Counted from the stretch's first letter, positions 2,154-57,253 are shown. The stretch: 64,000 nt of DNA from Paraspadella gotoi (GCA_051294375.1 CM119265.1:964089-1028088), one strand, 5' to 3'. The notes: generated by a model from the sequence alone, not told the origin. Made by a program: numbers and translations.

Positions 2154-2348
2154 TCGGCTCATAAAGACTCAAATCAGAAACGGAGACACGAATAAAAAAA
2201 CAAACAAAAAAAAGAAAAAATAAAAGAACCGAAAGGAGTTAAAATCGCTTCATCATCGAAGAACAAAATAAAATTTAAAAAAATCGCTGCGCAAAAAAAA
2301 AACTCCGATTCAGTATCTCACTTTCTCTCGCCCTCCTCGGAAACTCAC

Positions 2349-27600: not shown

Positions 27601-30600
27601 AGACGGATAGATAAACCCGACCATTGACGAACTCCCTTCTCGACTCCCTTTGTTTTTCAGTACGATATGAAATCTAACGGAATACTATCAGCTTTGCCAT
27701 ACGTAGCGTATCTTATTGTAGCGCTATTAGTAGGGAAGGCCGCTGATCGAATGACGCAACGGTGGATGACGACGGCGGCGACTAGGAAATTGTTCAACAG
27801 GTGAAATGGACAATTGGACATTGATTGTCGTTGGTTCAGTGAGCAAGAAAGGCGTGAAAGTTACGGATAAAAAGATAAGTTTATGACAACGGGAGGATTG
27901 CCCGTGATACTCGGGGGGAGGGGTATCTCACCAACTGGCGTAGGGGTTGCGGACCCTCGGTGACCGCCTCGTGTCACTGGCGTGATTACACCGGTCCCGT
28001 CACATTTAAGCCAGAACCAGGATACCACAGGGATCGAGCCAGGACTTACGGTTGAGATGATTTAGCCCGCTCAGCCCTTGCAGACGAGGCTGAGGACGGA
28101 GAACGTTGAGTCGTACTGCCACAAGGTCTTTATCGTATTCCTCCGCCTTTCCCCTTTCTTCCCTCCCTCTCTTCTTCTCCCCCGACTCTCCCCCACCTTC
28201 CTTCCTTCCCTCGCACTCCCTCCTCAGTCTCTCTCTCGGCCTGAGGACTCTCTCCCTCCTCCTTCTCTCTCTCTTCATCCACTCTCCCTCATTTTCAGTC
28301 GCCCTCGTCATTTGCGCAACTGGATTCGGCGGATTCGTCTGTTCAGGTGGTAAACATGATCACGTGACTAAACTATGAAACATTTGCGCAAGGATAGTTT
28401 TCTCGTGGGCAATTCCGTGATGTTTCGCACGGGTAAACTATTATTTATTAACTTTACGATTATGAAGCAATATGCATAAGTTCAACTACGCATTTCGTGA
28501 GTTATTTACTTCACAAAACGCCTCATTTTTTTCTTAAATTAGGAATTTGTTGTTTGTATGTTATTAATAATTGAAAATTAGGGTTGGGTATAGTAGCGGT
28601 AGCCGACCAAATTCAAATTTAATGGGACAGCATTAAACTAATCATTATTGGTATTAATTATTGTGTTAAAATATTTTTTTGCAAAAATGTTCCGAACCAT
28701 GAGTTAATTCGCTAATTAATATTATTATATCGTATATAATGTCAAAAATTTTTTTTGGATATTTTAAGTTTTTTAATTGATTCTGATAGAGCTTAAAAAG
28801 TTTAAGCAAAAAATATAATTACAACTGTTTTATTACTAAAAATTTAGTAAAAACTGCTAAAATCATCGGATGATGATGATGATTTTTAAGGTTTTTCTCA
28901 ATTTTAACCCACTTATCATCAAAATATTGAAAAAAATAATTATACTTTGTGTAGATAACTTTCATAAGCTATTTGAATCTGCTTTTAAAAATAAAAATTC
29001 AAAAAAATTTTTTGGACATTTCCTATCTATAAAAAAATAATAAAAATTAATTACAATGCTTTTGCCATTTTTAGAAAATTTTGCTCCATTGAAAGTTTTC
29101 TCAGAAATGTATGAAGTTTTCATTTGGAAAGGTTCCCAAATCAAACTTCTGACCCACATCATTGACGAAGTTTGGCTCTAGTTATAGCTTAAGGATTGAG
29201 TAAGTGATTAAGGTTAGAGATTAAGTTAATAATTAGGAGGTAAAGGATTAAGTATTTCATTGTAAATATGATGGACCGACAAACGAACAGACCAAGAAAA
29301 GGAAGGCGGCGAATAAAATCAGAATAGAATAAAATAAAAATAAAGTTCCTCCTTCCGCCTTTCTCCACTTTTTTCTAACCACTTTTCTCCAATCCCAATT
29401 TAATCCTTACCTTCCCCCCTTTCCTTTCCTCTTATGTGTTTCCCTCTTCCCTCTTCCTCTGACCTCTTCTTCTTGAATACAAAAAACATACCCTCTTTCA
29501 TTAAACCTCGCCTACATCTTCCCGCAACTACCCCTAATTTGTGTGTACAATCAAACTTCTCTTATAGCTTTTTCTTCCTCCTCTTTCTTTTTCCCCGGGC
29601 TCGCATCCTTCTCCTTTTCCTAATCCTCTCTTTCCTCTTTCCCGACAGTTACCTTAGCAGAGACACGTCACCTCTCTTAGTCTCAGACTCTCTTCGATCA
29701 TGAGAGTATGCTAACTATCCCTAAAAAGGGCTATCCACTAGTGCGCAAGGCCAACACCCCCTCGACATCGCCCCTCAATTCGCGGGCGTCGTCTTCGGCG
29801 TCTCCAACACTCTCGCCGCTTTCCCCGGATTCGCTGGACCAGAGATGATGGGGGCGCTGACTTCGGCCTTTCCCCCGACGGAGGCGTGGAGATACGTCTT
29901 CCTCATCAGCGCGGGAATAGAGGCCTGATCCCCAACTCCGATCCCTTATCCAAGGCTCGATCTCCTTACCCAAACCTCGATCCCCAACCTTAATCCTCAT
30001 CCAAGCCTCGATCCCCAACCCAATACCAAGCCTCAATTCCTTCATCCCAAGCCTCGATCTCCCAACCCCTTCAATCCCCCAAACCCCAATTCCCCTCACC
30101 GCAGGCCTCTATTCCCGCGCTGATGAGGAAGACGTATCTCCACGCCTCCGTCGGGGGAAAGGCCGAAGTCAGCGCCCCATCATCTCTGGTCCAGCGAATC
30201 CGGGAAAGCGCGAGAGTGTTGGAGACGCCGAAAGACGACGCCCGCGAATTGAGGGGCGATGTCGAGGGGGTTCACTAGGAAGCCTTTAGGGGGGTGAGAG
30301 GGGAGGGGGAAGAAGAGGAGGAGGGGAAGATGGGGAAGGGAAGAGGGAAACACATAAGAGGAAAGAAAAGGGGGGGAAGGTAAATTTGGATGGAAAAGTG
30401 GTTAGAAAAAAGTGAGAAAGGCGGAACTTTATTTTTATTTATTCTATTCTGATTTTATTCGCCGCCTTCCTTTTCTTGGTCTGTTCGTTTGTCGGTCCAT
30501 CATATTTACAATGAAATACTTAATCCTTTACCTCCTAATTATTAACTTAATCTCTAACCTTAATCACTTACTCAATCCTTAAGCTATAACTAGAGCCAAA

Positions 30601-32410
30601 CTTCGTCAATGATGTGGGTCAGAAGTTTGATTTGGGAACCTTTCAAATGAAACTTCATACATTTCTGAGAAAACTTTCAATGGAGCAAAATTTTCTAAAA
30701 ATGGCAAGAAGCATTAGTAATTAATTTTTTATTATTTTTTATAGATAGGAAATGTCCAAAAAATTTTTTTGAATTTTATTTTTAAAAGCAGATTCAAATA
30801 GCTTATGAAAGTTATCTACACAAAGTATAATTATTTTTTTCAATATTTTGATGATAAGTGGGTTAAAATTGAGAAAAACCTTAAAAAATCATATCATCAT
30901 CCGATGATTTTAGCAGTTTTTACTAAATTTTTAGTAATAAAACAGTTGTAATTATATTTTTTGCTTAAACTTTTTAAGCTCTATCAGAATCAATTAAAAA
31001 ACTTAAAATATCCAAAAAAAATTTTTGACATTATATACGATATAATAATATTAATTAGCGAATTAACTCATGGTTCGGAACATTTTTGCAAAAAAATATT
31101 TTAACAACAATAATTAATACGCAATAATGGTAGGGTATCAAGATGGCATTTAGATTTTCAAAAACGTTTACACAAGTGATCACACATATATATACTTTAA
31201 TTTAAAACACCTTTTATTTCGATTTGAAATTTTCAACATGAGAGATCCCGGTTCGATTTTTATCTGCTCCGAAATTATGCAAATTAGCTTAAGATCGAAT
31301 TTGTCAGATAACGATGACGCTCTTTATTCGCGTATTTTAAACGTTTATAATTGTAATATTATAAATAATTAAATATTAAAGTTTTTTAGAATATATATTT
31401 TATAAATATAAATAGTTATAGTATTTATACTAATATAAATAAGACAAAATAGCATTTAAACGAGAGCTTGAATGCTTCTTTACCTACTAAAATAGAAAAT
31501 CGAACAGATTTATGCATAAAACATAAAATTAACTATTTTGCTTGCTTAAAATCCTTATTACATATTATAAACTTTATAAATTATATAATTCAATTGTTTA
31601 AGTTACCATTATATGTGCTTTAATAAAAAGGTAAATAAGAAAAAACTTGATAACTAAGAGAAAATAAGCAATAAAAGTAAAATATTAAGATAAATAATAA
31701 TATTATAATATTATCAAAAATATTATTAAACAATATTAATAATAATATAAATAATATTAATATAACTATAATTAATTTAAAAAAATGATATTTTAAAACT
31801 ATTTGCAAAGAAACAATTTAAATTGTTTAAATTCTTAATGAATATTTTCTATAGCCAAATCCTNNNNNNNNNNNNNNNNNNNNNNNNNTGAGGATTGGGT
31901 TGAGGGGATTAGGGTTGGGGTTTTGGATGAGGGGATTAGGGTTGGGGATTGAGAATATGGATGAGGGGATCGAGGATTGGGATAAAAGTGAGGATTGGAT
32001 TCAGATCGAGAGATACACAAGAAGATGAGCATTTCGCTTGTGTTTGTCTCTCTTACTTAATATAGAAAAGTCAGCTGGAATCATAATCATAATTAAAAGT
32101 ATGAATTAGTAATATAATAATTGAAATATTAATTATTTAGCTATGTATAATATAACAATATTAAACCTTCAAGGCAATAGAATCAAAATTTTACAACAAT
32201 ACGCAATAATCCACAAATTAATCAGCTACGATTATACTTGGTCATTCAGGACTGATAGTCTTCGCCTGTTTGTCATCTGGTCAGGTGCAACCGTGGGCCA
32301 AGACCCCACCAGAGCATCAGGCCGTCTGCGCAAGCCCGTGGGCGGGCTGTCGCGAAGGCTGTCGTGCCGTCAGGGCTGAAGAGGATGAGGGAGGCATGGT
32401 GGCGCTATAA
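24667..32410 (+). CDS. SLC17 (sialin/Picot-like) MFS anion transporter; model incomplete around the fold-back region
   Basis: Exons encode RLIFATMVALGAFTIYAQRVCLSISLVAM (24667-), GSVLASFFYGYIFTQIPGG (about 25863-26063), GLVFPTVNGMYSLWVPPAERS, GWELVFY, TDSPSSHRRIDEAEKKYIE (26848-), YPWLHILFSPATLAI, SNGILSALPY (27661-), LDIAPQFAGVVFGVSNT...WRYVFLISA (about 29750-29926) and last exon 32250-32410 GLIVFACLSSGQVQPWA. All are SLC17 hallmarks. Confidence 0.9.
29927..31129 (-). repeat. Inverted (fold-back) duplicate of about 28643-29926, probably an assembly or amplification artefact
   Basis: 30103-30270 is the reverse complement of the SLC17 exon, and about 30340-31129 mirrors about 28643-29450 with small indels. 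Confidence 0.85.
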
Positions 32411-33914
32411 GGAAAAAAGGGGAGGGCGTTAACAATGTATAGATGTATATATTAGATACTGTAAGTTTTGAAATTGTTTACCAGCATACATTTATTTTAA
32501 GTTTATATTTAATATTAAATTATAATTTTTGATTTTTCATATTTTTGATGTTTTTCGTTCAAAATTTGATTTAAAAGTAAACTTTAGCCAGTTAAGTAAT
32601 TATTATTTGACAAGGTACAGTTATTTTTAGCTACTTTATAAGTTTGATAGTGAGAATTACCATGAAATACGAAAGGGATTTGTCAAAAAGAATTTTCAAA
32701 ATGTTTGTAGTCGGGCATTGCATAAAGCCATCAGGTCAGAGTCATGTTTATAATCGGGGGTGAATCTGGCCGACTAATTATCATTAATGCTGATCTTTAA
32801 TTTACGAGTTAGTTGGAAAGTTTTTAAAATATCTTGTGGTAATTATTGTAATTAAGGATTTGTTAAAATTCGGTGCCATGTTAACATAAAAAAAGTAAAT
32901 TGTAACAGAAAATAATAGAGTCGCTGGTTAACGTTGAGGTCACATGATCCGTTTGTCTTTTGTTTCGTTTGAATTGAAATCGATCCTCGCTCGATTCTCG
33001 AGAGGAAAAATATGAAATGAAAATAAATGGTAGATAATTTGAGAGATATGAAATAACTTTAAATAAAATCATCATAATTATTTTTTTAGTTTTTGTGATA
33101 ATAGAAGAAAAAAGAACGCGAGCAACATAATATGAAAAAGTGTTTAATATGCATTAAATCATTTAGGTGAAATATGAAAAATAAAATGATTCTAAAAAAC
33201 AATTCTTTATTTTTTATTTTTCCTTTTTTTTTCCTTTTCACTTTTAATCTTTTCATTTTTTTCCTTTTTAAATCGCAACAAAAGAGAAAAAAAAATCTTG
33301 TTTAGGTTTTTTTTTAATTCGCGTCTGAAAAACGGAAAATAGTTCGACTGTGGGAATTTCCCTGATTTGTCCTTTTTCAATTTATTCATTATTTTTTCTC
33401 TCTTTCTTTTATTTACGCTAAATCGATTTTTATGGTGTTAAATCACTTTATTCACAAGTAAAAATCTGAATATAATAGGGCTAATTTGATAAAGTTTAAG
33501 CTTTTAAATATATTCAATCTGTCAAGCTAAAAGTTTGTATTCTTATCATTATTCTTATATGTTTAAAAATCGCAGTTAAATGATTTAAATATTTTACGGC
33601 GAATAGTTTTAACCCTGTCGAAGTGTAGCGAGCGATCCCGTAAAATCCCACGAGTATTAAATGGCGATAGCGAGACGAAATCCGCATTTAGAGTAATCGC
33701 ATTTAACGTATTTGGTTGCAAACAAAATGTATTATCGAAGGGAAAGTAACAGAAAAGTCTGTTTTGTCAATGTTGTTTTTTTTTTTTTTTTGTTAAGTTT
33801 AATAAATTATTTATAATTTAAAAGGAAGATATTTAAAATCATGGTTGTCACTTTATTTCTTTTTTCTTCCTTTCTCCTTTCCTTTTTTTTCACTACCACG
33901 TCTCTCTCTCTACC

Positions 33915-34178
33915 CACTTTTCTCCTATCTTTTTTCCCTTTTTCTCCTATCTTTTTTCCCTTTTTCTCCTTTCTTTTTTCCCTTTTTCTCCTTTCTTTTT
34001 TCCCTTTTTCTCCTTTCTTTTTTCCCTTTTTCTCCTTTCTTTTTTCCCTTTTTCTCCTTTCTTTTTTCCCTTTTTCTCCTTTCTTTTTTCCCTTTTTCTC
34101 CTTTCTTTTTTCCCTTTTTCTCCTTTCTTTTTTCCCTTTTTCTCCTTTCTTTTTTCCCTTTTTCTCCTTTCTTTTTCC
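33915..34178. repeat. 22-bp polypyrimidine minisatellite (TTCTTTTTTCCCTTTTTCTCCT)n
   Basis: Direct repetition; source of the F/S/P-rich and K/R/E-rich spurious ORFs. Confidence 0.9.
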
Positions 34179-36490
34179 CCCCTCTTTCTTTCCTCCCCTC
34201 TCTACCCCCCCCCTTCACCTCCATACCTCATTGTTTCTCGGAGCAAAACAAAAAAATATCCGCGGTCGCGATCCAGTTTGACCGGAATTCATTTCGACAG
34301 AACTCGTAATCCTCGCCTGTCGTAACGATGATTCGTAAAGGATAAAAGCGTGAATGGTGTTACGACTGTTGGCGACGGAGTTGTCGTGTGGAGCCGTCCC
34401 GTCCTGTTTTTGGCGAATTAAAAGTCTTTATGGTTCACTTGGTTTCAGACGATGGCGGCGGCAGAAGACGTGGGGTTTAAAAAATATTGATATAAAATTA
34501 ATAATAATAAGAATATTTAATATGAGTAACGTTTCTTTTACATGAAACATAATTTTAAAACTATGGGGAACTCAAAACTTTTTAAGCGTTGTTCATAATT
34601 TATGATCATTATGACAATCATACTACGTCACCTCCACCTTCGTCTGAGAAATTTGCGATTGAACCCAGCGAGAGAAAGAAAGAGAGAGAGAGACTATGGA
34701 GTGAGAGAGAGAGACGAGCCAGACTCTCCTCTTCACGAAATTGCGGCCTTTAGTCACGGATCCGACGGCGATAAACAATAAACAGTAAAACTTCCAAAAT
34801 TTTGTCCCAAAAATAAACAACAAATTTTGACTCGTAAATTTTTTTATGTTTTTAAATTTTTTCCAAGTTTTGCAAAAAAAAAATTTAAAAAGAATAATAT
34901 TAATAACTCTTTAAATAATCATTTTTCATAATAACATAATGGTTAATGTTTTGGTTATCCCAATAGGTTTGTTATACAGAAACTATATAGTAAATCTATA
35001 CTTAGCTATTTTCTTTACTTTTATTTTCCCTTCTTTGCGTTTGAAGGCTAATTTATCCCCACAAGGTCGAGTCCAGGTCGCCATTCGATTTGCTCACCTT
35101 TTACTACTGCGATTTGACTCTCTCTAGTTTTCCTCTACTTCTTATTTAAAGTCTATTTTATAACAATGTCAGAATTTACCAAATTTGTTTCTAAATGACT
35201 TCAAAAAGGGATCTATGAAGGTTAATTTTTGTCATTGGAAAAAATTACCGTAAAATTCTATTTTATTTTTATCCTTCCCGTCCTCTTACCTCTCTTTTCT
35301 CTTACCTCTTACCTCTCTTTCCTCTCTCTCTTTCCTCCTACCTTCTGCGCCCTTTCTTTTCTTCTTATCTCTCCCCTCCCTCCCTCATCTCCTCTGCACT
35401 CTCTCTCCCTTCTCCCTCTCCCCTTTTCACCTGTCTCTCTCATTCTCATTTTTGAGTCAAACGACCACAAGTTTTCTCCAAACTCAATTTTTCTCTTTTT
35501 TTCTCAGTTCGAATCAGCAAAAAAAAGTCAAACGCGTAGTTTTTCATAGGTTCTAATTAAGTAACTATGGACCTTGAGAACTGTCGTTACGGGATATTCG
35601 ATCGTTTTTGTCGATAATAATGATGGGCCCGAGCTATTTTGAAAATACGTCGAAATGCCCCTGGGGTTGTTTTTTCGATTTAAAACTCTCACTGTAGTAA
35701 TATCATCAGTATTTAAATTAATTAAACTTTACGTATTCATGTTTGTTTTAAATTGAGTTGGAAATTAACCCCGATTGGCTCACAAAACAAACAGAAATCA
35801 CCTCGTGAACCGAATAAACTTATCAGTAATTTTTTTTTTCCTTTTTCGTCATAACAAACTTATTCACTTTACGGTTCATCGTGACTTTTTAGTCCTTGCG
35901 CGTGTTCTTTGTTTTGCATGCGAAATTTACACGTGCTAATTTTATTTGCACGTCATTGATCATGCTTTTTCGAGCTTTTTCGGATTTTAGCTACACTTGG
36001 TTTGTTATTTCGTTTCATTTCTTTCACAATTTATATTAAATTTTATTCAATATTCCAATCCCATAGCGCCAAATTCCGCTCATTCAAAAACCCTCCCCTT
36101 AAATACTAAGCCTTTCTTTCAAAATGTTTTGCTTCTTGTAAAAATTTTGACGACCGACGAAAGGATTATCCATTGTTGTGACCGGAAAATCTCCGTGTCG
36201 CCCAATATTGTAGTTTTCATTGTAACTTCATCCGATTGGATATTCCCTCTTTTGTCTTGCAAATTTTTTTTCCCACCAATGAAATTTGCATAAACCCATT
36301 ATTCACAATTCCATGTTTTTTATCGTTTGGTTGGTTATTAGCTTATGGCTATTCCTTACAGACTCTGGAAGACTTTTCATTATGATATATATATATATAT
36401 ATGTGTGTGTGTTTTAGTTATTATTAATAAAATAGGATAACTTTCTTTGAATTTTTCCAGGAGGTTGAGTATATCGTCCCGGCGTCGACG

Positions 36491-39400
36491 ATGTCGCATT
36501 CTCAATTCGACCAATCGCGAGGCTCCAATCGTCGCCCCGTTGTCGAAATCGACGTCAGCGACGAATCAACGTCGAGCAACGAGACCGTCGACCGTATCCT
36601 CCAATCAGAAACCCAGTTTCTGCATCGCGACATCGTGAAGAAATTCGACGGCCAATCGGACGCCCGCAATAGAGACACGCACCATGAGGAAAAACGTTAC
36701 AAAACTTCTGACCAATCATCGTCCTCGACGAAACTTTGTTCGCGCCGTTTCGACCAATCGTCGAGCGGTATGGAACATTATTCGCGTCAAAGCGAACGTT
36801 TTAATGATTATGCGGAACCCGTAATCTACAATCGCCATCAATTGACAAACAGAGAAAATGAAAGAAGTCGTAACCATTCATCGAATTCCATGGAGAATCA
36901 ACGCATTTCGCAGAATCGCTACCATTCAGCGATTTCTCCAGATCACCAACAATCAGCAACTGAACTTCGCCCGCGCAGTCGCCATCCATCAGCAAACTCC
37001 CTCGAATTCGGTCCCAGAAGCCGCAAACCCTCTTCGACCTCCAACGAACTTTATTCCCGCGGTTGTAATCAATCCACGAGTATTTCCGACCTTCAAACGA
37101 GTCGCAACAGTTCGTCAATGTCCGCGGAATTCTCTCGAAGTCGAAATCCATCCGCCACTTCCTCCAAACTTTCTAGAGAGACTCGATTGGAGTCTTCGGA
37201 CTCTCGTTCGCCTAACCAAGATCACGTGATCCAACCGGATCGTCACGCGGTCATTCCAAAGTCACATTCACGAGTGATGCCGTCACAACCTCAAGCTTCT
37301 TCTCGCAGACGATCGAGGAACTTGGACGACGAGTCACGACCTTCGAGTCGCCGCCAATCCGCCCTCATTCCTGAGCCATGTCATTCAAACTGCCGTCAAT
37401 CGGCGCCGTCTCCCGAACCATGTCGAAGGTCATGGCATTCTCCTCAACCATGTCCATCAATCCCAGATCAATCTCCCGATCCTTCTCCAGCAAACGGCCC
37501 ACAACATCCCGATCCTTCTCCATCAACGAGTTTACAATCGGCTCCTTCTCCCGAGCCGCGTCCCCCAAGCTGCTCGTCCGCGCGCTCTTCCAGGGAGCTC
37601 GTCTCCGCTTCCGAGATGCGAGAGTTGCTGCTGGAGAATCTGCCCGAGTCTGCCGTCGAAGCCATCATGGCGCGGGCGGCGAGGTTGGGGGCGGAGTGGG
37701 CGAGAAGAGGGGAGGAAGAGGAGTGGAGGGAGGAGGAAGAGGATGAGGAGGAGCGGTTGCCGGACATCGTGCCTTTCGATGGGTCGGCGGGGATGAAGCA
37801 GGACAAGGCACGAATGGACAAAGTGAGAGAGGACAAAGGAAAGGACAAGAATGGAAACGATCACATTGGAAACGAGACAAATAACCTGCCAAATGATTTT
37901 CAAGAGGAAAATAAGAAGAGTAAGAAAAATAAACAAAATGACATCGATCGAGAGAAGAAAAGTAGGATCGATGATGATGAGCGGCGCTGCGAGACGAGAA
38001 GATCGAAAAAATCAACAAAAGGTCAATGGAAAAGGAAAAGTTATTCCGACAACGAAGTCGATAAAAGAAGATTAGAAGAAGATGAGAAAAATGAAAAATA
38101 CGATAAATATTACGATCAAAATGCGGAGGTTTATGAAACGCGAGAGCGGATCCACGATAACTATGACTACTACGATAAAAACTGTGAGAGGGAAAGCGAT
38201 CAAAATCTTAACCGTTGCGGGAATATCGAAGTTCTTGTGAAAAAGGATAAAGATAAGCGGAGAGAGAAAGTCTCGCGATACGAAGAGGAACGGAACGAGA
38301 AAGACGACGACGACGACGACAGAATTAAACCGGAAACGAATGAAAAAGAGGAGGAGGAGGAGGAAGAAGAGGAAGAGGAGGGGTTAGAGGGCATGGAGTT
38401 GGTGCCCTTTCGTCGTCGGGTGGAGGACGACGACGACGACGACGAACCCGTCGTCGGGGCCGCCATCATGACCAAAGTAAATTAAAGTTCGTTTTGCGAT
38501 TGGTGACCAGAATTTTATTTCATCAAATTAGCAAAAATAATAAGATTTCGATGTGTAATTTTTGAAAAAAAAAATGATTAAAAATCTAATAATTGTCTTA
38601 ATTAAATAAATGAAGCATATTATATTATATATATATATTATATATTTTCGAATAAAATATATATTCCAGAAGACAACAATGTCCCCATCCCAAACATTGA
38701 TAAATAATGTTATATTTAAATATTTAACACAAAAATATTATAACAAATAAATAAGATCATGAATAAAAAATAAAAAATTAAGATAGTAAAACAAGTAATT
38801 TTACAATTTTCTTAAATCTTTTTATAATTATGTAATAAATATCTAATAATAGATAATTTATTTTTCTACCACCAGGTGATCCAATTATCGGGCGTCGGTG
38901 ACGACGGAATGAGAAACAATTTGGCGACAATAACAACAACAACAATTCGATCCGACTCCAATTCGAAAGAATCGACTCCATTCGGGAAAGGAGCATCGCC
39001 TGTCAGGAAAGGAGCTTCGCCTGTTAGGAAAAGTGAGTCGCCTGTCAAAAGCTCTTCCGAAATTAGAAATTCCCCACCGAAAAAGGAATTGTCGCCTGAT
39101 GAGAAAATAGCATCGCCTGATAAAAGAGCATCGCCTGATAAAAGAACAGCACGAGAAGAAAAGTCATCTGAAAACTCTGAAGATGATTCATCTGTAAAAC
39201 TACAAGCTTCTCAGATGAAATCATTTTCCGACGAAATATCTACAGGCAGCCAAGCATCGAGTAAAGATTCCTCGCCCGCTCAGCGATCGCCCGTCGTCGC
39301 TGCGAGCAAAGATTGCTCTTTTGTTCAAGATGCGATCAAAGCCTCGACTCCAGTCAGTTATGCGAGCAAAGATTCTTCGCCCGCGTCTCGTGCGAACAGA

Positions 39401-42400
39401 GGACAGAGTTGGGATTCGGAAGAATCTTTTCCTTCGTGGAAAGGATCGTCCGCGTCGCCCAAAGAGACGTCGTCTTCGCCGTCGTCGTCGAAGGCTTCGA
39501 CCAAAGGATCAATTCCGTCGTCAACGGCCTCTGAAAGGTCTTCGTCTAGATCCGTACCTGATAAAGCATTTTCTGCACTGGATAAAGCATCTTTTAAACC
39601 AGATAAAGCATTTCCTGCCGATAAAAGAGTTGTGGCTTTTAACAGAGCAGTCACTTCACCTGATAAAGTGATTACTACATCTGATAAGGAAGTTCCTGAA
39701 CGCCAAAATGCAATTGATTCATCTCAAGTTGCTGTTGATTCTACGGCTGCAGATAAAAATATATTTGACTTATCTGAGATGGGAATTCCTGCAATATCTA
39801 CAAACTCTGCACATTGTAATGATATTTCTCTGACAAAGAAAACGTTTGTTGAAATCGAAAAAACGGCTAATGATATGACGGAGGTATTTTCAGAAGCTTC
39901 AAAGGAAATAACGAAATTGCAGGAAGAATCTCTGTTATCGGAAAGGCTAACACCGATTTTGCAACAATCTGAAAAGGAATCGAGCATTGAAAACAATTCA
40001 AATCCAAAAGTTCTTACCTCTAGCAAAGAATCTTCTATAAGTTCGGAAAAGGAATTGATTTGTGACAAATCTCCAAGCAGAGGATCTTTGAAATTAAGCC
40101 ACAATGAATCGTTAGCATCCAGTCAAAGATCCGCAGCAAACGATGAAAAATCAACAGCATTTTACAGCAAATGCGATGCTAATGATGAAAAATATCCACC
40201 ATCGAGTAGCAAATCCGCAGTAACTGGTGATAGATCAACTGTATTTAGCAAAAATTCCACAGCAACTCACGAAGGATCTACTGTATCTAGCAGCCAATCT
40301 GTGGCAACTCATGAAGGATCAACTGTATCTAGCAGCCAATCTGTGGCAACTAATGACGGATCAACTGTATCTAGCAACAAATATGTAGCAACTCGCGAAG
40401 GATCTACAGTATCGAGTTGCAGCGAACTTACGGCATGCAGCGAGGATTCTCTCATCTCCAGTAAGTCTTCATCTCTGCTGAAAGAAGAATTGACGAAGAC
40501 GAAGAATACGACGATGGCGACGATGACGGGAACGACGATGACGGCGACGTCCAAAACCAAGTCACTTCCTTTGATGGGAAAGTCCAGTTTAGCTCTGATG
40601 TTTAACATGTGGAGAAAGAGCGGGGACGGGAGAGAGATGGAGTCATTAGGAAAAAGGGAGATGGAGAGGGATGGAAAGAGGAAGAAGGCGGCAGCGGAGA
40701 ATGAAAAGGAAGCAATTAAAGAAAAGTCCGCAACGCTGCCTGTCACCAAAAAAAGATCTGCTACGATTGCTACACCGAAAGAGAAGTCTGCTACACCGAG
40801 AGACAAGCATGCTACAAAAGAAAAGTCGGCAACTCTGGCTGCGGTCAGACAAAAGTCTGCAACGCTTCCTGCAACGAAATCGAAGGCACAAACGATCGAT
40901 CGATCTGTGGAAGATTCTGACCAAGGTTCTGAATCTGATTCGATCACAACGGAAGATTTTGAAGAAGAAAACTCGGAGACGAAAAAGAAAATCGAAAAAT
41001 ATTTGAAGAAGAAAGAAAAGATGCGTCGTCAGTCAGTCCGAAGTTGCGTCTCCGAATCGGGATTCAAATTTGGCGCCAAAAATAAGATGGAAGAAAACAA
41101 AAGATTTTCCATCTCTGGACTTTTTAATCGTTTGGTCAAATCGTTCAGTAAGGGCGACGTCGGTGGAGAAAGGTGAGGATTTTGTTGGAGCTTTAAGTAT
41201 AAAGACCCTTAGTTTAGTATCCATTGCTTCATAGTTTAATTAAAATAAGTTCTGATCGTTGCGCGCGTATTTATTCTTATTACTTTGTTGATTCGGTCAT
41301 GGTTAAATGAAAATTATAATCTTTTAAATAATTAGTCACCTTAAGATTTTTGTTTACTATTAGTTGAGTTCATATTCGTAATATAAGGTAAATAAAATGC
41401 ATATTTACTCTTCTCCTTTTTCATCCTTTTCCCCCACCCAAAACAGCCCTCTACTCCGCCCCCCAACTCCAGATCCCACGTGCACCGACGCTTGCTGCAA
41501 CAGCTACCCCATGCGGCACGTTCCCCGCGGCTCCGCTGCTGAGTCGGACGGAGCGAAGCCGCTGCGCCGCGGTCGCTTCCTCATCATCAACATCGCCAGC
41601 GCCGCTGGCCGGGCGCTGCGGGAAGGCGCGAGGAAAGACGAGGAGATGATGGTGGAGGCTTGGGGGCAGATGAGGTTCCAGGTGAGGCTTGGGGGCAGAT
41701 GGGATTCCAGGTGAGGCTTGGGGAAGATGGGGTTCCAGGTGAGGCTGGGGAAGATGGGGTTCCAGATGAGGCTGTGGTAAGATGGGGTTCCAGGTGAGGC
41801 TTGGGGGAAGATGGGGTTCCAGGTGAGGCTGGGGGAAGATGGGGTTCCAGATGAGACTGTGGTAAGATGGGGTCCAGGTGAGGCTGGGGAAGATGGGGTT
41901 CCAGTGAGGCTTGGGGGAAGATGGGGTTCCAGGTGAGGCTTGGAGGAAGATGGGGAAAGATTTGGTCACTAGATTTGCTGAGCTTTATATGTATACTATA
42001 CTATACATTGTATAGTTTAGGCGTTTTGGCTGCTGTCAGTGCGAGCGTTAGTTTATCAAATGTTAAATACAGACCCAACCCTTACACGAACTTACTTTTA
42101 TTCCAATCTCAGAGGTCCGCTAACTTATCTATTTATCTTACCCCAGGTCCGCCTCGGTCTCAGCCCCTCCACCCTCTCACGCGACCTCACTTCCCGCGAA
42201 ATCCTCCAAGTGTTGGAGGCGACGGCGACGAAGATCGATGAGGACGACGACGCCTTCGGTTTGATGGTCATGAGTCACGCCTCCGACCACGAGTGCGTTT
42301 TGGGTCAGTATCCGTCCAAGCGGTGGTCTTTGGTCGCATTCTTTAGATCTGTGTTTAATTTTTTTTTCTTTTTAACTCCCTGTAGTTTAGCTTTATTTTT

Positions 42401-43482
42401 CTATAAGAAGCTTAATATTTATAAATTAATGAAATTTTAAAATCATTAATGAATATAATGCTTAAATTTAAATTTTGTTTTGCATTAATTTTAATTCTCA
42501 GGTTCGGACGGTCTCCCAGTTTCCGCTGCTCAAATCGTAGCTTACTTTTCGGCCGAGAGATGTCCTCCACTTAGAGGGAAGCCAAAGATGTTTTTCTTTC
42601 AGGTGAACGAGAAAAAAAATTTAAATGAGCTAAAATTACTTGAATATTCATATTTAACTCTTATTGTTGCATGTTAAAGTTTAACAAAACCAAACTCATA
42701 ACCTCGTCCTTCTTTCCCATTCAGTTAAGCCGCTCCAAAAAGATCATGACGGACCTCCTTCCCTCCCACTCTTCCCCTTCCTCCTCCTCTTCCTCCTCAT
42801 CCGCCACCGCCTCCCGACGTCTTCCTCTTTGCGACGATTCCGTCTTCGTGCAAGCCTTCGTCGACGGCACGCCCCCTTTGAAGTTCGAGGAGACGGGGAG
42901 TTGGTTCGCGCGCGCTCTCGCGGAGACGCTGGACGAGTACGGCGGGAAGGCGGATCTGTTGACCGTGTTGACGAGGGTCAATGGGAAGATTCAGGTGATT
43001 TGGATTTGGGCAATTGGGCATACGTTTTGGGGATAATAAATAATGAATTAGTTCTGTGGTATGATCGGCGGAATTTGTGTGAATTCATGAATGAATTTTT
43101 TAGTGAGATGTAATCTGAATAGTGTTAAACTTAAACTTTAAGTGAAACTATACTCATTTTTAATCAAAACTTATTCACTCTTTCTTCTTGGCCACCCCCC
43201 TTATCCCCACGAAAAACACAGTCCAAAGATCGTCCCCTCCTCCCCGTCCACAAGGAATGGACCCCCGTCTCTCGCTCCTCTTCCTCTTCCTCCTCCCTTC
43301 GCCTCCCCATCGTCGTTTCCCACTTGACGAAAGACTTGTACCTTGACGCGACGGCCATCGCCCCCTGCCGTCTCTCGCAGGCGACGCCGCCGCCAAATCA
43401 GGACATAGTCGACGCGCTGCTTGAGAGTCCGACGAGGAGGAGGAAGGGGCTCAAGCTCTACAGCTTTGATGGAGACTTTTGA
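36491..43482 (+). CDS. Caspase-fold (peptidase C14A-like) protein with a ~1,450-aa low-complexity Ser-rich/charged N-terminus, predicted catalytically inactive; 1,768 aa from Met at 36491
   Basis: Phase-consistent exons (36461)36491-38476, 38876-41172, 41447-41681, 42147-42303, 42502-42602, 42725-42994 and 43222-43482. Caspase motifs: YPM..PRG, RGRFLIIN, REGARKD, DAFGLMVMSHA, LGSDG, FSAERCPPLRGKPKMFFFQ|LSRS, TGSWFARALAETL, DLLTVLTRVN, SHLTKDLYL. Confidence 0.88.
41652..41957 (+). repeat. ~29-bp tandem repeat (about 10 copies) spanning an exon/intron boundary
   Basis: Unit GTGAGGCTTGGGGGAAGATGGGGTTCCAG; the first copy is the last 30 nt of exon 41447-41681. Confidence 0.9.
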
Positions 43483-44424
43483 GAGAGAGAGATGGAGAAA
43501 AGCTGGAGAAGTTGATGGTGTCTGAGTTTGAGAGTCCCGACTCAAAGGGAACTCTATACAAGATGTAGTTTTAAGGGGCTGGCTATGTGAAATTTTTGTG
43601 CATATGCCTCATACAACCAATATAAAAATTATCCATTCATTCAATAAATAAGCTATTTTGCCCCTGACTTAGCACAGGCTATCACATTCACGCTCGTTTT
43701 CGTTCGCTATTGATTGATATAGATCAGAACTACATCAGTGGCGAGTTTGATATAGAAGCCGCAGCGAATTTATTTTTTTAGATTTTACCAATTTTTTTAC
43801 TGTTTGGACGTGTTGTTAATCCAAGTCTAATTTATACTTTGGCGGTTTTTTGCCCCCAAAATCGGTTTGTTTTTTTAGTTTTACTACGATTGGTTTGGTT
43901 TTTGTAGAATAGTATTTTATGGATCAGTATTTTTTATAAACCCAGTTGAACCCTCATACATACTTTTTTATTGGCCCCATTCCCGAAAAATCTGTTTTAA
44001 GTCTTTATTTTGTAACAGGAAAGACAGAATTATACTTTTCAGTTTTTTGTAAAAAAAAAATATATAAATAAATAGCTTTGTTGGTTATCCGGCGGCGTGA
44101 TTATTTAATATTTATTGGTTTTTTACCCGATTTGTTATTTATTTTCCGTTTTTCATGATGTGTTTCGTTGTTGTTTTCTCAGGAAAAAAAATAATTGAAG
44201 AAAAAACTTTTCAGAAGAAACTGGAAACTGGAGGTTTTGTCAAGAAGTAAAACCGCGCGGCTGCCTTATTAGTCTCTCCCCTCCGATTTCAAACTGCAAA
44301 CTGACTTGGGAATCCTGATGGGCCATAGACATCCGCGAGCAGTTCTAAACTCTACTCTTTGATCATTGAAGCCTTTTCCTTTCTTCCTTCTTTTCTTCTC
44401 TCCCTCCCCCCTCTACCGGTCACC

Positions 44425-47400
44425 ATGAACACCATGCAGCAAGCATTGATGGACGAGATTCCCTTCGGGAGTCCGCCTCACAGGGCCGCCGCTCAGAACG
44501 CGAATCACATCAATGGTAAATTATGATAAAATGATGATAATTATGATGATTATGATCAAAGATGCGATGCTTATTAATTATTATTTTCAATTATGATCCA
44601 AGAGGCGATGATGGTAGTTAACCGCTACTTGATCTAATAGTGATGGTATACTAATATTTATTATCGTCATTTAAAGATGCTCGCATTTTGTGATAAATTT
44701 CTGCAAAATGATTCCAGTGTGGCGGTATATTCACTCTGCCTCATATCCGCCATCATTCGGCCAATCCCATGGTTCGGAGGGGGAACGCACCATCCCAAGC
44801 ATTACATTCCATCCATACTGTGGATTAAACAGTCCTAATGACTTACCTCTGCCTTGGCAAGGCGAGACCGTCCTAGGGTAACCTCGCCAGTGGCAGGAGG
44901 TCCCCAAAGCCAACAGTGAGATGCCCCATCCCAATGGGCATCGCAGGCAAACTGATTGTTGCCACAATGGCGTACTAATATTTATTCTCGTCTGGTTAAG
45001 AGACAGTAATTATTATGTGTTAATGACAGAACCGTTCAATACAAGCAGTCCCTGAGCTTTGGATCAGGCTGTAACACCATGTTACAGGCGGGTTAAGCGC
45101 CCCGTCCCTCTTAACTGCCAGACGAGCACCGGGCTAGAACCCCGGACCTTTGGGTTGGGAGGCGATTGACTTGCCTCCGGCACCAATGGCCACATGAACG
45201 GTTGGTGGATTTTAGTCTACCATACTTCCCCCCCCTCCCGTAGGGAGAAGTCTTGTCTTTTCAGTGAATTTTTGTTGTTGATGGAAAGTTCGTCACCAAG
45301 TTGAGGCATGTCGCCTGATGTGTTGTGGGCAGAAAGTGCTAGGTTGAGGCATGTCGCCTGAAAGTGTTGTTGTTGCTGTTGTGTTCGGAAGTCGGGCTCA
45401 CCAATAAAGAGACAGTAATTATTATGTTTATGACAGAACCGTTCAATATAAGCAGTCCCTGAGCTTCGGATCTGGCTGTAACACCGTGTTACAGGCGGGT
45501 TAAGCGCCCCGTCCCTCTTAACTGCCAGGCGACCATCGGGCTAGAACCCTGGACCTTTGGGTTGGGAGGCGAATGACTTGCCTCCGGCACCAATGGCCAC
45601 TGGTGGATTTTAGTCCACCATACTGGTTTATTTTGCTCCCAATTAGTGTTCCGATAACCGTTAACTGTTAACGGTTATTAACGGTTAAAAATAATTTTAA
45701 CTTAACCGTTAATATATTTATTTTAACGGTTAAATTCGGTTAATTTTCAAATGTGATTTTTTTATTTTTTTGGTATGAAATCTTTAAATTTAAAAAAAAA
45801 ACTATTTTTTTTTTGTTCTCTCTTATTCTCCTCTCCCCTTCTTACCATATTTTTACCCATCTCTCTCTTCTCCACTTTTTTCCTGCTTTTTTCCTTTATT
45901 TTTTTTTTCTATCCTAATCTCTCTCTTATTCTTTCTTCCTCTTTATTTATCTCCTATTGTTTCTTTCTTTTTCTCTCTCACTTTTCCCTTTTTTCTTTCT
46001 CCCTTTCTTTTTTCTCCTTTTTTCGCCCCTTGCTTTTACCTTTTTCCTTTTTTTTTGCCCTTCCATGCAATATATATTCAATTTAGCTAAAATTAAATAA
46101 TCCCTCTTATTTTACTTTTTCTCTCTTTTTCTATCCTTCTTTAAAACGATCAAAGAAGCAAATGAAATAAAACCAAATGAATGAAAAAAATTAATAAAAA
46201 ACAAATAAAAAAAATAATTTAAAAAAATTTTAAAATTAATAATAGAAAGAACAAATCTTAAAAAAGACATTAAGGCTAACTAAAACTATCCTTCAATAAT
46301 GATGATATACTTTTTAATTAAACTGAAAAATATATTTATTATTCAATAAATCTTTTGATCAATCGATAAATCAACCAGTCTATCAGTAAATAAAAATTTA
46401 TATTTATATTTATCATCAATGACCATTGGGTCATTAAGGCGTAGTGAAAGTTGCATTCAAAAATTCAAAAAGTCAATTATGAACATACCATCAGTGAACA
46501 TTAATTTGTAAAAAAAAATAATTTTATGTTTTTTAATTTTCGCAGTAGGTTATAAAATCAAAAAATTTCAAAATAGGCTTTTCTTAATTTTGGTTGCAGA
46601 TTTAAATTCCTCGTCAAAAGTTGATAGAAAAAAATATAAATCATTTTTAAAAATTCTTTCATTAAGTGGGTTAAAAATTAAAAAAACTATATTTGATATA
46701 TAAAAAATTTATTTTCAGCTTAAAATATAGCTCTTTCTAATTTTTGACCCTAGAATGATTATATGCTCAAACGAAATTTTTACATTTTTAAGTATAACTT
46801 TCAATGGACAAAACATTTCTTTATGTGGCTCTATACCCAAAAAATTTTTTTTTAATATTTATTTATAAATAGGAAAGGCCAAAATTTTTTTTGATAATTT
46901 TTAAATTTTAAGACCAGATTCAGATAACTCATAAAAAGTTGTCTACACAAAGTATAATTCTTTTTTAAATATTTTCATGATGAGTCAAAAATAAGAAAAA
47001 CCGTAAAAAATCATCATCATCATCATCTTACGATGATTTTATCAGTTTTTTTATTTTTTCACATAGAAAACGTAAGAATTTTTATAAGCTGTAATTATAT
47101 TTCTTATTTAACTTTTAATGCTCTATCAGAATCCATCAAAAAATTTTAAGATTTCTAAAAAAAATTTTATAATATTAAAAAAGACAAGTAATATTTAATG
47201 TATTAATCAAGACGTATAATATAATTTTTTTTGAAAAATGATTGTTTAAATATTTAGTCAAGACAACTAAAAGTACTTTGCTAATAGTCGAAATTGTATA
47301 TTTATCTCTGGAGTTGGTCCCTACTGTTAAAACTAACATTTTTAACGGTGAACCGTTAAGATCGGTTAATTTTATAATTTTATTAAGATTTAAAACAAAC

Positions 47401-50400
47401 TAAAGTATTTAATGATATTTTATTTTAACTCTGGCTCCTGAATGCGCTGATAAAGACTTGAAACAGAGTCGAAACCTGTCTGTTTTTTATGTCAAATAAA
47501 ATTGTAGTTGTAACAAAACAAATATTTTTGCTAATCTCATAACACATTGAAACGAAAGGATACCATCAAATTCTCATTCTATATTTTGTTTTCTTTCTTT
47601 CTTTTGCTTTCTCTTTTTCTTTCTCTACTTCTTCTCTTCCTCATTATTTTTGTAGTTGTTTAGGTTCTTAAACGCTTGTTTTCTGTTGTTAGTCTTTCAT
47701 AAACTATGACCAATAGGAGTAGTAAAATTTCTCATTTAACTTTAATTAAAATCCCATCAACGAGAGGACTGAAGCGATCTTGCCGGGGAGCGAAGGCGGA
47801 CTGGAGGAGCAGCAGGAGAGCGGCAGGAGAGCAGCAGGAGAGAGGGAGGAGATCGAGAGATAGCCCATGGGCTACCCAACGAATAAGACTGAAGGAGAGT
47901 TGGGGGAGCCAATGAGAGGGATCGTGACTTTGAGTTGAGAGAGAAGATCTGTAGAGATTCATTCTGTTCTCCATCGTCCTAGTGTTCATGTCTCGTTCTA
48001 TCCTTCTTTAGTTGTGTAAATAAATACTCTGTTATTTTGACCACATTTGTCTTCACGTTATTGTGGTGGCAGACAAGGACCGTCAGCCCCACCGCCTCCG
48101 ACAAATTCAGCACGCTACCGTAACGGAGAAGTCAATTGCGTTTCTTTTTTTGAAAGAAATAAAACTTTTCGAATAAAAGGTAACACGGTCAACCAAATCG
48201 AAAAATGCCTCAACTACCGTTCATAAAGAAGAATGACGACGACAAAAAGGACGAGAGGAGAGACATCCCGCCGAGCGACTGGAACAGGCCAACGTCTGTT
48301 GATCTCGACGACCTCCCGCCAAAGCCCGGCGCGGAACGGTGGACGAGTAGCAGAGGAGCTGGATAGGTTCCACATTGGAGAAAGGCGCCGAAGCGAATCG
48401 GAAAGAGGCGCGGCCGGCGCACGCCACGCCGGCCACCGTCGACGATGGACCTCTCGAACGACGAAAACCGCGTAATCGGACTGTCTGAGAGCATCAATAA
48501 GGTCTTGAACGGAGGGAAATCGGCTTTTACCTGGGAAACGAACGCCAAGCCACGCGACGACACGCTCTGGCTGGTAAACGACTCCGCAAGGAACATAGCC
48601 GCCTTCGAACGAATGCGACAGCTCCACACAAGAGTAGAACAGGCCGCCGATGTGGCAAACAAGACGGCAGCCGTAGTCCGCAAACTTCGAATCGCGCCTT
48701 CAACCGCCTCGAGGAGTTAATCAAGGAACCCGGCGCGGCAACGCCCAAGAGCCCGCCTCCAGGTTCTCCGTCCTGCCAGGCCGCCTCGCTCCACGCCGTC
48801 CGCTCCGGCGGCGCTGGACGGGAACGACGACGGGACAGCGACGCCTCCGCACGGTGGTTACGCGACATCAAGCTGGACCGCCGACGAAGCGACGAAAAAG
48901 CCGCGCGATTTTTTGCGCGGCATCTACAAAACGCTAAGAACCTGCGGGTTTCGACGAGGAGAAGAAACGAGCAACTAAGGCGCTGCTCGCCCGAGACGAG
49001 CAAGCCAGCGTCTACGTCGACCCGGTGGGCGGCAGGCCTATGGCGCGGCCTGGTCGCATGTGTGAGAGGACGTCGATTGGGGCGCAGAAGTCGCGGACAA
49101 GGTTGTCGTCACCGTGGACCCGGAGGAGCATTCCGAAAGCGGACTAGCACTGGTCAACACGGTCTATAGAAAATCGACCGCGTCGCGGAGGACGAACGAC
49201 CGTGCGATCGCCAGACACGTCGAGGCTTCTCACAAGCGCTGGAACCGTCAGCACCAGGGATAACGTCTAACGATGACGTTTCCGCGCTCATTGCGGAAGG
49301 GACGCGCCGAGACTCGCAGCGAATCGAGTGGATCTACGTGGCTACGTTGACGCGCGCGGAGGACAGCGCACTGCCGCGCGCAGATTTCATCAACCGGTGA
49401 AGGAGGCGACCGTCAGATACTTCACCGACTCACTGCTTCAAAAAGGGACTCTCGGACAAAAACCCGGGAGAAAGCGCAAACGCCCTCTACCAGGGAACAA
49501 TTGCTCAGGAAAACAACAACCAAGAGAGTTTGCTGGAGAAGTTGTAAAGTCAGTAAACGAGCTGAGAAGGCGGCGCCGCCAGCCCCCAACCACGACGAAG
49601 ATGGCGCGGCTGCGACCAGAGGAGAGAACACTGGAGAACCAGAGGCTCTGCCGCGAACAGGATGGCCGCGGCCCGACGAAAAGGCGCAGGGAAATGGGGG
49701 AGAGAGAAGGGGCGTTTCCCGCGAAAATAGATACAACAAATTTGATGTAAAACGCAGAGATTGCCAGATTTGAAGATTGTGAGGAGAAAGTTTGTTTGAT
49801 GGTGAAATAAAGAAACCTGAAATATATTCAAAATCTTTTTCGAAGAAGACCCGAGCAGTGAGCAGAAACAAAAAAGCTAGCCAGGAGGGGAAAAAAGGAT
49901 TAAAGGACATGGCGGGGGAAATACAAACCAGGCCCGCCCACGAGAAGACTAACAGAATTCACCGATATCGCGATGTCATTTAAAGAAAATCTGCCGCAGG
50001 CAGACTGCACAAGTTGTTTAAACGCTAAACGCCAGAGATAGGTCATCTCTCGCGGATGTCGATGTTAAAGGGCAGCAAGGAGATGCGACACTGGAAGGCG
50101 TAGAGAAAGAGGCATTAACAAAAAGGCTAGGATTTGTGAAAATTATGCCGAGAGCGAATAAGGAAGCCGGACAGAGAAGGAGACGGAGAACTGGAAAAAT
50201 GGTGAAACAGAGGAAAGGACGAAGTGGCACAGCCACAAAAGAATGAGAAGTGGAACAGGCTAGACAAGTACACGCGAAGGGGAGAAGGTGGTCTATAACC
50301 CACTTACCGGTGGTCGGAAACCCCGAAGGCGAGTCAATGCACATGGCGACGATCAGAAGGGTTGAAGCGATCCACGAGCAGAAACTTCGAACTGCCGCAC

Positions 50401-56400: not shown

Positions 56401-57253
56401 CAGAGTGTGATGGGATTGTGAACTTTGCCATCTCTAGTGAATTTACATATATGACAACCTGCTCCACCTACTTTTATTCCTCCTCCCCCAACCCGCTCCA
56501 GCTTCCCGCCCCACTTCCCCCGACGCCTCCTCCACTGGCATTTCAGAAAAGCTCTCCCAATTCCGCGTCGGCCGATCCGCTCCTTCCGAAGCCGTCAGCC
56601 ACTCTCAGCCGCAATGGCCCGCCCAGGGCTATCCCAACGCCCCGTCGCGCCCTCGATCCTTCGACGCTCAATCCATCGTTTCTCCGCCGACTCATTCCGG
56701 CAGCCCCGTCTTTTATCCGGCCGACCGTCGCCCGTCCGGCTGCCCGTCCGGCGACCCTCCCGGCCAATCCGTCTCTACGGGTCATTCTCTTCCTCTTCCT
56801 TCTACCAGTCATCAAACCTTCTCTTCTCTTCTTCCTCCTGTCAGCGCCATTCCATTTCATTCGCCCTACAACTTTCCCGCCACCGCAGCAGCAGCGAATC
56901 CCTGGGGCGGCGGAGGCGGCGGCGTGCTGCCGGGCATCTCTTTCGGCGGCGTCCTCGGCGTCGGCGGTGGTGATGGACCAGACGCTGATTATTTCAAATC
57001 TCAATTCGCTTGGTCGATTCCCGATCCTCATGTCCGACAATCGAGCGACGCTTCCCCGACTACCCCGACAACGACGACGCCCGAAGGCGGCGTCAATACG
57101 ACGCGGCCAACTCCAGGCGCCGAGGTTAATTCGACGCCGGGTCACGCCCACTTTTTGGCGCCGCAACAGATTGCGTTTTATTCCGGCGTCGAGAATTATT
57201 ACTGGGGCGCCGAGGGGATTCCGCCTTATGGAGGAGGAGAATTCACTGAGTAA
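44425..57253 (+). CDS. Single HMG-box protein (non-SOX type) with long low-complexity flanks
   Basis: Phase-1 exons 44425-44515, 53332-53487, 53788-54774, 54925-55077, 55160-55366, 55663-55833 and 56502-57253. HMG box RPKKYQNSYMLFCRDHRSIVAKENPEATPIEVARILGQRWRDLSP|ETKRPYQDQARKDKDEWVAKY. Linking the first exon across the 8.8-kb intron is inferred. Confidence 0.82.
44998..45622 (-). mobile_element. Two nearby copies of SINE-like family A (44998-45224 and 45407-45622)
   Basis: Reverse-complement matches to 4121-4349. Confidence 0.8.
47444..47570 (+). mobile_element. Penelope-like pLTR remnant with a minimal hammerhead motif (47444-47483)
   Basis: GCG-CTGATAA-A-GACTT-GAAACA-GAGTC-GAAAC-CTGTC, then AATAAAATTGTAGTTGTAA...AAAGGATACCA tail shared with the other copies. 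Confidence 0.65.
47651..53063 (+). mobile_element. Heavily frameshifted Ty3/gypsy LTR retrotransposon in intron 1 of the HMG-box gene; truncated by a gap, left boundary approximate
   Basis: LTR-like region with AATAAA (about 48018) and PBS-like TGGTGGCAG (48064). Broken protease DTGAS motif (about 50575), RT WRLICD..RVN (about 51753) and xVDDxL (about 52060), connection KDLRALLASLNYYAAF...LAQPLHALT, and RNase H-like DTS..AMG and LETLA. Confidence 0.8.
53289..53302. promoter_or_regulatory. Near-palindromic RFX X-box GTTGCCATGACAAC
   Basis: One mismatch to GTTGCCATGGCAAC, 30 nt upstream of HMG-gene exon 2. Confidence 0.5.

Follow-up and report, generated by a model that had tools for sequence, protein, structure and literature searches.

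Described pseudo-caspases and the locus among them

To our knowledge, only a small number of pseudo-caspases have been studied in detail, the most familiar of them being dependent on death-effector domains. It is established caspase biochemistry that a Cys>Ser exchange ends cleavage and that fold and binding persist; this is the change carried by CASPS18 of Aedes aegypti, a short protein adjoining its active paralogue. According to the available text of the respective papers, CASPS18 is called a decoy and enhances CASPS19 (PMC4840389), and FLIP(L) regulates caspase-8 in both directions by forming a heterodimer with it (PMC7586951). The C. elegans proteins CSP-2 and CSP-3 have been reported as inhibitors, although, according to PMC3591282, the CSP-3 phenotype was not reproduced. 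The C163S form of caspase-3 folds, binds and sequesters substrate and does not cleave it (PMC3002157, text in part), and a change at the Gly of the SHG motif has been reported as disruptive in human caspase-12 (PMC11630849, text in part). A survey of 60 lophotrochozoan genomes described many unusual prodomains, and a term search of its main text, with the supplements outside scope, returned no mention of inactive or pseudo-caspases (PMC11463336).

The window analysed here, a 64,000-nt stretch of Paraspadella gotoi DNA, holds a gene for a pseudo-caspase, that is, a protein with a caspase fold that has lost its catalytic residue, is expressed and is under purifying selection. Like cFLIP(L) (CFLAR), it joins a complete caspase fold to conserved inactivating substitutions. 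However, cFLIP has two DEDs and Arg315 and Tyr360 in place of His and Cys (PMC7586951, available text), whereas the protein here has His and Ser, is DED-free and carries a predicted disordered region of 1,467 aa. With CASPS18 and the dipteran caspase-like decoys, as far as the available text describes them (PMC4840389, PMC3141678), it shares the predicted loss of catalysis and may share an origin as a duplicate of an effector-type caspase; it differs from CASPS18 in lacking a paralogue within the window and in carrying a giant N-terminal region and an L3 loop that is both remodelled and invariant. Drosophila Strica/Dream also has a long Ser/Thr-rich prodomain without a death fold, but in the available text Strica homologues keep their catalytic residues (PMC3141678), and here the Ser-rich region accompanies a domain whose catalytic Cys is absent. 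In C. elegans, CSP-2 keeps the Cys (VCCRG) and CSP-3 is without the whole active site, whereas here Ser stands at the Cys position; the parallel with CSP-2 drawn in the original prediction is therefore looser than implied (PMC3591282, available text).

Natural loss of the Cys is also seen in some domains of the insect tandem caspases P0002, P0003, P0005 and P0006, with a single case of Cys -> Ser (EASKG in P0003, Anabrus simplex XP_068084304). Those Cys-less domains are fused to active caspase domains, whereas the dead domain here is the only one, and no second caspase motif was found within the 64-kb window. No account of the subfamily or its architecture turned up in a literature search; most subscription journals and supplements lay outside its scope, so a listing in a genome-paper table is possible. 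The earlier suggestion of an undescribed protein holds for this combination of features but not for dead caspases generally: in a scan of ten ordinary caspase proteins, 4 of 16 motifs had no Cys.

Gene structure

Seven exons, with GT-AG introns throughout, join to 5,307 nt and encode 1,768 aa with one stop, which is terminal. The two huge exons predicted to run in phase with five caspase exons are thus part of one frame. The features are as follows.

36461..38476, + strand: large exon 1, ATG at 36491 (36491-38476, 1,986 nt), aa 1-662
38876..41172, + strand: large exon 2, 2,297 nt, aa 663-1428, covered by X1 contigs (see below) and spliced to exon 3
41447..41681, + strand: exon 3, in which the large subunit of the caspase begins (RGRFLII from 41565), Arg64-equivalent kept at 41619-41621
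41655..41955, no strand assigned: minisatellite, 28-nt unit, 10.7 copies, from the exon 3 donor into part of intron 3
42147..42303, + strand: exon 4, catalytic His kept at 42276-42278, next Gly -> Ala (SHA)
42502..42602, + strand: exon 5, encoding ...CPPLRGKPKMFFFQ, the final residue being the Gln of the QACxG position
42725..42994, + strand: exon 6, L-S-R-S, its first Ser replacing the catalytic Cys (42728-42730), then conserved IMTxLL, a Ser-rich linker, the small subunit and LKFEETGSWF at 42878-42907
43222..43482, + strand: exon 7, coding part, last beta strand RLPIVVSHLTKDLYL (43300-43344), then a 45-aa tail

Read in any of its five other frames, each large exon contains 10-68 stops, so the long open frames are not an effect of composition. 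The first donor in the minisatellite is the exon 3 donor that is spliced in X1. A strong acceptor, in frame and 30 nt 5' of the ATG, ends at 36460; the exon with ATG 36491 is therefore probably preceded by another, and the protein may extend slightly beyond its modelled N-terminus. The gene upstream, an MFS/SLC17-like transporter (Pfam MFS_1), has its apparent end near 32410 (judged by eye), and given this end and the acceptor at 36460, an extra 5' exon may lie within 32.5-36.4 kb. A TPH-domain (MNS1-like) gene is a neighbour, and the host is an animal with spliceosomal introns.

Transcript evidence

Contigs from one run of one study (X1), presumed to be RNA, were aligned to 38800-42775; X2 and X3 covered almost nothing of this interval and carry no evidential weight. 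X1 contig 5 (2,033 nt) joins 41172>41447, 41681>42147, 42303>42502 and 42602>42725, that is, 4/4 of the junctions within 38800-42775. All of these joins are GT..AG, and depth is zero in bins that are wholly intronic. Both 41172-41447 and 42602-42725, which the original prediction had singled out for confirmation by RNA, are therefore spliced in this contig. The spliced RNA reads Q-L-S-R-S where QACRG would be expected, and because no letter differs between X1 and the window over 42725-42775, a second individual also has Q-L-S-R-S.

At the 42602>42725 joint, extra letters between the two sides are possible; read depth in the two bins concerned is as expected if coverage stops at the donor and resumes at the acceptor. 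The original prediction had named another acceptor restoring QACxG as a threat to its reading. None of the seven AGs listed for 42610-42860 would do so (by eye), and the sole in-frame micro-exon candidate in the AG and GT lists, 42630-42665 (by eye), encodes no Cys. No alternative acceptor or micro-exon giving QACxG was found among these candidates, and the RNA uses acceptor 42725.

A further X1 contig aligns from acceptor 38876 precisely and has 125 additional letters ahead of this point; X1 carries 0.62 of the sampled words of 36400-43700. Since this share would have a ceiling of 0.45 without exon 1 (the expectation with exon 1 is 0.60-0.65), exon 1 is probably present in X1, and junction 38476>38876 is supported indirectly, by the word share and the contig start at 38876. 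Exon 2 is covered by overlapping X1 pieces, with no single contig across. The 689 nt of contig 5 that remain past exon 5 fit exon 6 (270), exon 7 (261) and 158 nt of 3' UTR; a UTR of 158 nt would bring the contig end near the AATAAA that lies 3' of exon 7 at about 43643. Junction 42994>43222 is supported indirectly, by the length of contig 5 alone.

Caspase domain and its substitutions

A profile of 11 reference caspase domains found one caspase domain in the spliced protein, at aa 1468-1725 (131.6 bits, profile positions 16-256 of 261). Pfam PF00656 matched exons 4, 5 and 6 in order, with exon 6 (E 2.5e-5) alone above the curated cut-off, and the PDB matches were caspase-3, -7 and -9 chains (exon 5 against a caspase-9 chain, E 7e-6). 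Identity to the reference caspases is 23-30%. On these matches, the protein is a member of the caspase family by descent with a complete p20+p10 domain, in agreement with the original prediction. The phase-0 intron between Q and the position of AC lies where human caspase-3/6/7 have theirs.

Near-invariant positions were defined as those on which 10 or more of the 11 references agree (40 positions), and 26 of the 40 are kept, including Arg1486, His1550, GKPK, Gln1592, GSW and, within the last strand, its Pro and Leu. The losses comprise Gly1551>Ala, Ala1593>Leu, Cys1594>Ser, Gly1596>Ser, Arg1645>Lys and nine others. In caspase-3 numbering, in which Arg1486 corresponds to Arg64, the equivalents of Arg64, His121 and Gln161 are kept, and the changes are C>S, SHG>SHA, G165>S and R207>K. 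The S1 pocket would accordingly keep two of its residues, Arg64 and Gln161, with Lys for Arg207, and TPPLK/QKSLK stands where active caspases have the YYSWR-type S2-S4 wall. The last strand, RLPIVVSHLTKDLYL, is similar to the effector type; in caspases this strand is the dimer strand.

Each substitution named in the original prediction was recovered: QLSRS for QACRG in both the DNA and the spliced RNA, SHA for SHG, and Lys for the P1-binding Arg, on which the alignment to caspase-3/7 chains and the 11 reference domains agree. Its sequence GTPPLKFEETGSWF was also verified. With the QACxG Cys and the His-Gly pair both altered, the protein is predicted to be catalytically dead and not an active caspase.

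Homologues and selection

HMMER with exon 6 as query against 1.84 billion representatives gave 13 matches. The best was P0001 (E 1.7e-19), called as one exon of 92 aa on a short contig. A second search, with a profile of exon 6 and P0001, found P0029 (3 members) and P0030, 3 of 144 candidates being retained. The three homologue clusters P0001, P0029 and P0030 are each 51% identical to exon 6 of the window and 75-82% identical among themselves. Two of the matches, P0004 and P0008, were rejected as homologues, being repeat proteins and not caspases.

P0001 and P0030 open with (M/Q-L)-S-H-T-R-K-I-M-T-N-L-L, in which the Ser occupies the Cys position; the P0029 call starts downstream of this position, so that the Ser is kept in 2/2 homologues that reach it. 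LKFEETGSWF is invariant in 4/4 family members and is, at 10 residues, the longest invariant run (permutation p 0.011, for a run chosen after the fact), with 39/83 columns invariant overall. In ordinary caspases, by contrast, the residues after the Arg vary freely among the reference domains. The family further keeps M-T-x-L-L behind the Ser and A-x-x-R-x-P-x-C-x-D-S ahead of the small subunit; Lys occupies the Arg207 position in all four members, and G165 is replaced by Ser or Thr. D1602 of the window linker is Asn in the homologues, and the linker has no conserved Asp cleavage site. All three homologue calls end K-I-[KR] then Val, and a donor GT at this point is probably shared. Since the Ser and LKFEETGSWF are conserved in the homologues, the dead site and remodelled loops appear to be old and maintained. 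To judge from these alignments, the gene belongs to a conserved pseudo-caspase subfamily and is not a decaying copy, with the long region known from this species alone. Conservation of the Ser and of the remodelled loop in these homologues is support that lay beyond the reach of the original prediction.

Longer homologues of exon 6 were absent from 445 candidates in a weak search, and no homologue of exon 4, which could have been checked for the His, was matched. In metagenome_contigs no locus was confirmed as homologue DNA, and the pattern KFEETGSWF had no match there or in genome_contigs. In a tree of 12 rows, which covers neither P0004, P0008, P0012, P0013 and P0014-P0027 nor the Cys-less domains of P0002/P0003/P0006, the first domain of P0009, the exon-only homologues or any Strica sequence, the domain could not be assigned to any parent clade, the end branch is 3.3 and an effector origin is not confirmed.

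Within 38800-42775, X1 and the window show 26 exonic differences, 12 synonymous and 14 not. The resulting pN/pS of 0.35 (p 0.008; 26 sites, one other individual) was obtained without transition-bias correction, which would weaken the effect. Exon 2 alone gave 0.42 (p 0.032), and the caspase exons alone held 2 synonymous and 0 nonsynonymous differences (p 0.057). The ratio agrees with purifying selection as supporting, not decisive, evidence. That an intact 5.3-kb frame speaks against a pseudogene is now strengthened, since the frame is open and expressed, with a pN/pS of 0.35 and conserved homologues.

The long N-terminal region

The non-caspase share of the protein is 83%. By score, 79% of aa 1-1467 is unfolded, whereas one half of the caspase domain scores 8% and the other 0%; the prodomain of Strica is several times shorter than these 1,467 aa. 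The part encoded by exon 1 (aa 1-662) is Ser/Arg-rich and Pro-rich, followed by acidic and basic blocks, and is predicted to be disordered, with isolated charged helices at aa 373-421 and 472-604 in a single-sequence AlphaFold model. The exon 2 part (aa 663-1428) is Ser-rich with short tandem repeats, and single helices are predicted at about aa 983-1034 and 1354-1389. Mean pLDDT of the single-sequence models is 48 for exon 1 and 43 for exon 2; no helical bundle appears in either, only isolated helices, a weak result for models made without an alignment. No Pfam match to CARD, DED or Death was obtained in the two big exons or in 16 + strand ORFs of 30300-36490 (chosen from 90 listed), so that the reported lack of CARD and DED stands on negative scans as well as bundle-free models. 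An Atlas look-up of aa 360-440 gave no usable match and has no weight either way.

The region contains eight S/T-P-x-K/R motifs versus 2.8 expected, a number reached in 0/500 shuffles (a cluster at aa 703-751, and aa 923 and 1061). These motifs are not independent, because 6/8 lie in or beside short tandem repeats. Motifs for PKA, DxxD, KEN, LIR, SxIP and RVxF were not above shuffles in the long region, and DxxD-G/S/A sites numbered 0 versus 1.7 expected, which is not significant.

Possible functions

A maintained dead fold must bind something, and we infer a decoy or scaffold role. We see about an even chance that the caspase domain, predicted to be dead and preceded by 1,467 aa of predicted disorder, acts by forming a dimer with an active caspase and setting the activity and location of that enzyme. 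We rank this reading first because FLIP(L) and CASPS18 are reported to act in this way and because the protein retains the core and the last strand. These two elements, a dimer surface judged from the sequence of the window protein, would allow pairing with an active paralogue, as cFLIP pairs with caspase-8. The remodelled invariant L2 (IMTxLL) and L3 (LKFEETGSWF) loops may determine how the partner is contacted, or they may seal off the dead site. The long region may replace CARD/DED as a targeting device, its charged helices serving for binding and its S-P-x-K/R motifs as possible cell-cycle kinase switches. The effect on the partner could go in either direction, inhibition or enhancement. 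Against pairing stands the invariant loop on the substrate face, for which a substrate- or new-partner-binding role would fit at least as well.

Since conservation is strongest on what was the substrate face, two further explanations are real rivals. The dead groove might grip Asp motifs, either uncut or as new C-terminal Asp ends, while the long region tethers or protects them and no caspase is paired. Effector caspases open the groove by a loop rearrangement, and this rearrangement may not occur here, as no linker Asp site is conserved; the exchanged S2-S4 wall and the Ser/Thr at G165 also mean that the canonical groove is altered. We consider substrate gripping rather unlikely, even with Arg64 and Gln161 kept, a basic residue retained for Arg207 in the family, the invariant run on the substrate-binding loop, and the His kept in a fold whose C163S form sequesters substrates in caspase-3 (PMC3002157, text in part). 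Alternatively, the fold may have been co-opted outside cell death, as a dimerising or binding module at the end of a large disordered structural protein (e.g., germline or cytoskeletal) with a non-caspase partner. The preponderance of non-caspase, largely disordered sequence is in keeping with such a scaffold, as are a domain so diverged in identity and branch length that nevertheless has its own invariant surface and, without significance, the lack of DxxD-G/S/A sites. Characterised pseudo-caspases, however, mostly act on active paralogues in the available text (PMC4840389, PMC7586951), and we hold co-option, too, to be rather unlikely. We put forward only tentatively a dedicated reader, in which the His/Ser site, Arg64-Gln161-Lys207 and LKFEETGSWF would bind one specific ligand, either an end left by caspase cleavage or a partner unrelated to caspases, while a phospho-regulated disordered scaffold of 1,450 aa would carry the reader into a cellular structure; the subfamily would then be one without a death fold, possibly outside cell death.

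The remaining explanations dispense with a binding role. An active protease with a Ser nucleophile, forming a His-Ser dyad in the caspase fold, might be suggested by the His kept in the window protein and the Ser in 3/3 sequences covering the Cys position. Yet Cys>Ser is a one-base change that recurs in other dead domains, such as EASKG of P0003, and catalysis is very unlikely because C163S caspase-3, the standard inactive form, does not cut (PMC3002157) and because a change at the SHG Gly, here Ala, is reported to disrupt human caspase-12 (PMC11630849; both sources in part), which leaves this idea hardly tenable. A decaying duplicate, or a chimeric model with large exon 1 taken from another gene, is highly improbable: the open frame, spliced contig and empty introns, the pN/pS and the conserved homologues argue against decay, and exon 1 ends in a donor, not in a stop and polyA, with a contig leaving exactly at acceptor 38876 and a word share that needs exon 1. 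In its favour are the start of the X1 alignment at 38800, which places 38476>38876 outside it, the lack of a single contig spanning exon 2, and expression drawn from one run of one study with presumed RNA.

Significance

That dead caspases recur is already known from cFLIP and CASPS18; new here are the conservation of a dead site and a remodelled loop across species and the unusual architecture. The reach of the finding is limited to a restricted lineage and a non-model animal. The conserved substitutions and loop supply exact residues for testing. A conserved subfamily in which the His is kept, the Cys is replaced by Ser and a remodelled substrate loop is frozen, with a disordered region of 1,450 aa in at least this species, would show another way of regulating caspases or of reusing their fold.

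Neighboring genes and repeats

Four features of the window flank the gene for the pseudo-caspase, in which Ser replaces the catalytic Cys:

2278-6026, - strand, TPH-domain gene, MNS1-like (Pfam PF13868 in three of the four exons tested)
18018-19205, exons of a Rho-family GTPase (Pfam Ras, E 1.9e-22)
44426-57260, HMG-box gene downstream of the pseudo-caspase (Pfam PF00505, E 1e-11)
47650-53060, LTR-retrotransposon-like element, degenerate, its frames broken in many places

The GTPase exons, judged by eye, diverge unusually from typical RhoA. The HMG-box gene is strongly diverged and includes a low-complexity repeat exon (53788-54750); the retrotransposon-like element sits between its exons. Stretches resembling reverse transcriptase and RNase H were recognized by eye in this element, and a Pfam scan of it returned no match.

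In the MFS/SLC17-like transporter gene upstream of the pseudo-caspase, an 816-nt inverted repeat spans 28643-31129 (arms 28643-29452 and 30337-31129, matching at 96%), and between the arms lie one exon of that gene and an inverted 173-nt copy of it (29756-29927 and 30102-30271, matching at 98%). The repeat represents either a fold-back duplication within the gene or an assembly artefact.

Possible 5' exon and insect multi-caspase chains

A small exon may precede the pseudo-caspase main exon at 34449-34469, with its own ATG in a context matching that of the main ATG (36491) and a weak, phase 0 donor at 34470; if used, it could lengthen the N-terminus by 16 residues. Four insect proteins from the homologue search (P0002, P0003, P0005 and P0006) carry two or three caspase domains in a single chain, one domain in each being without the catalytic Cys. 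These chains are built-in pairs of pseudo-caspase and caspase.
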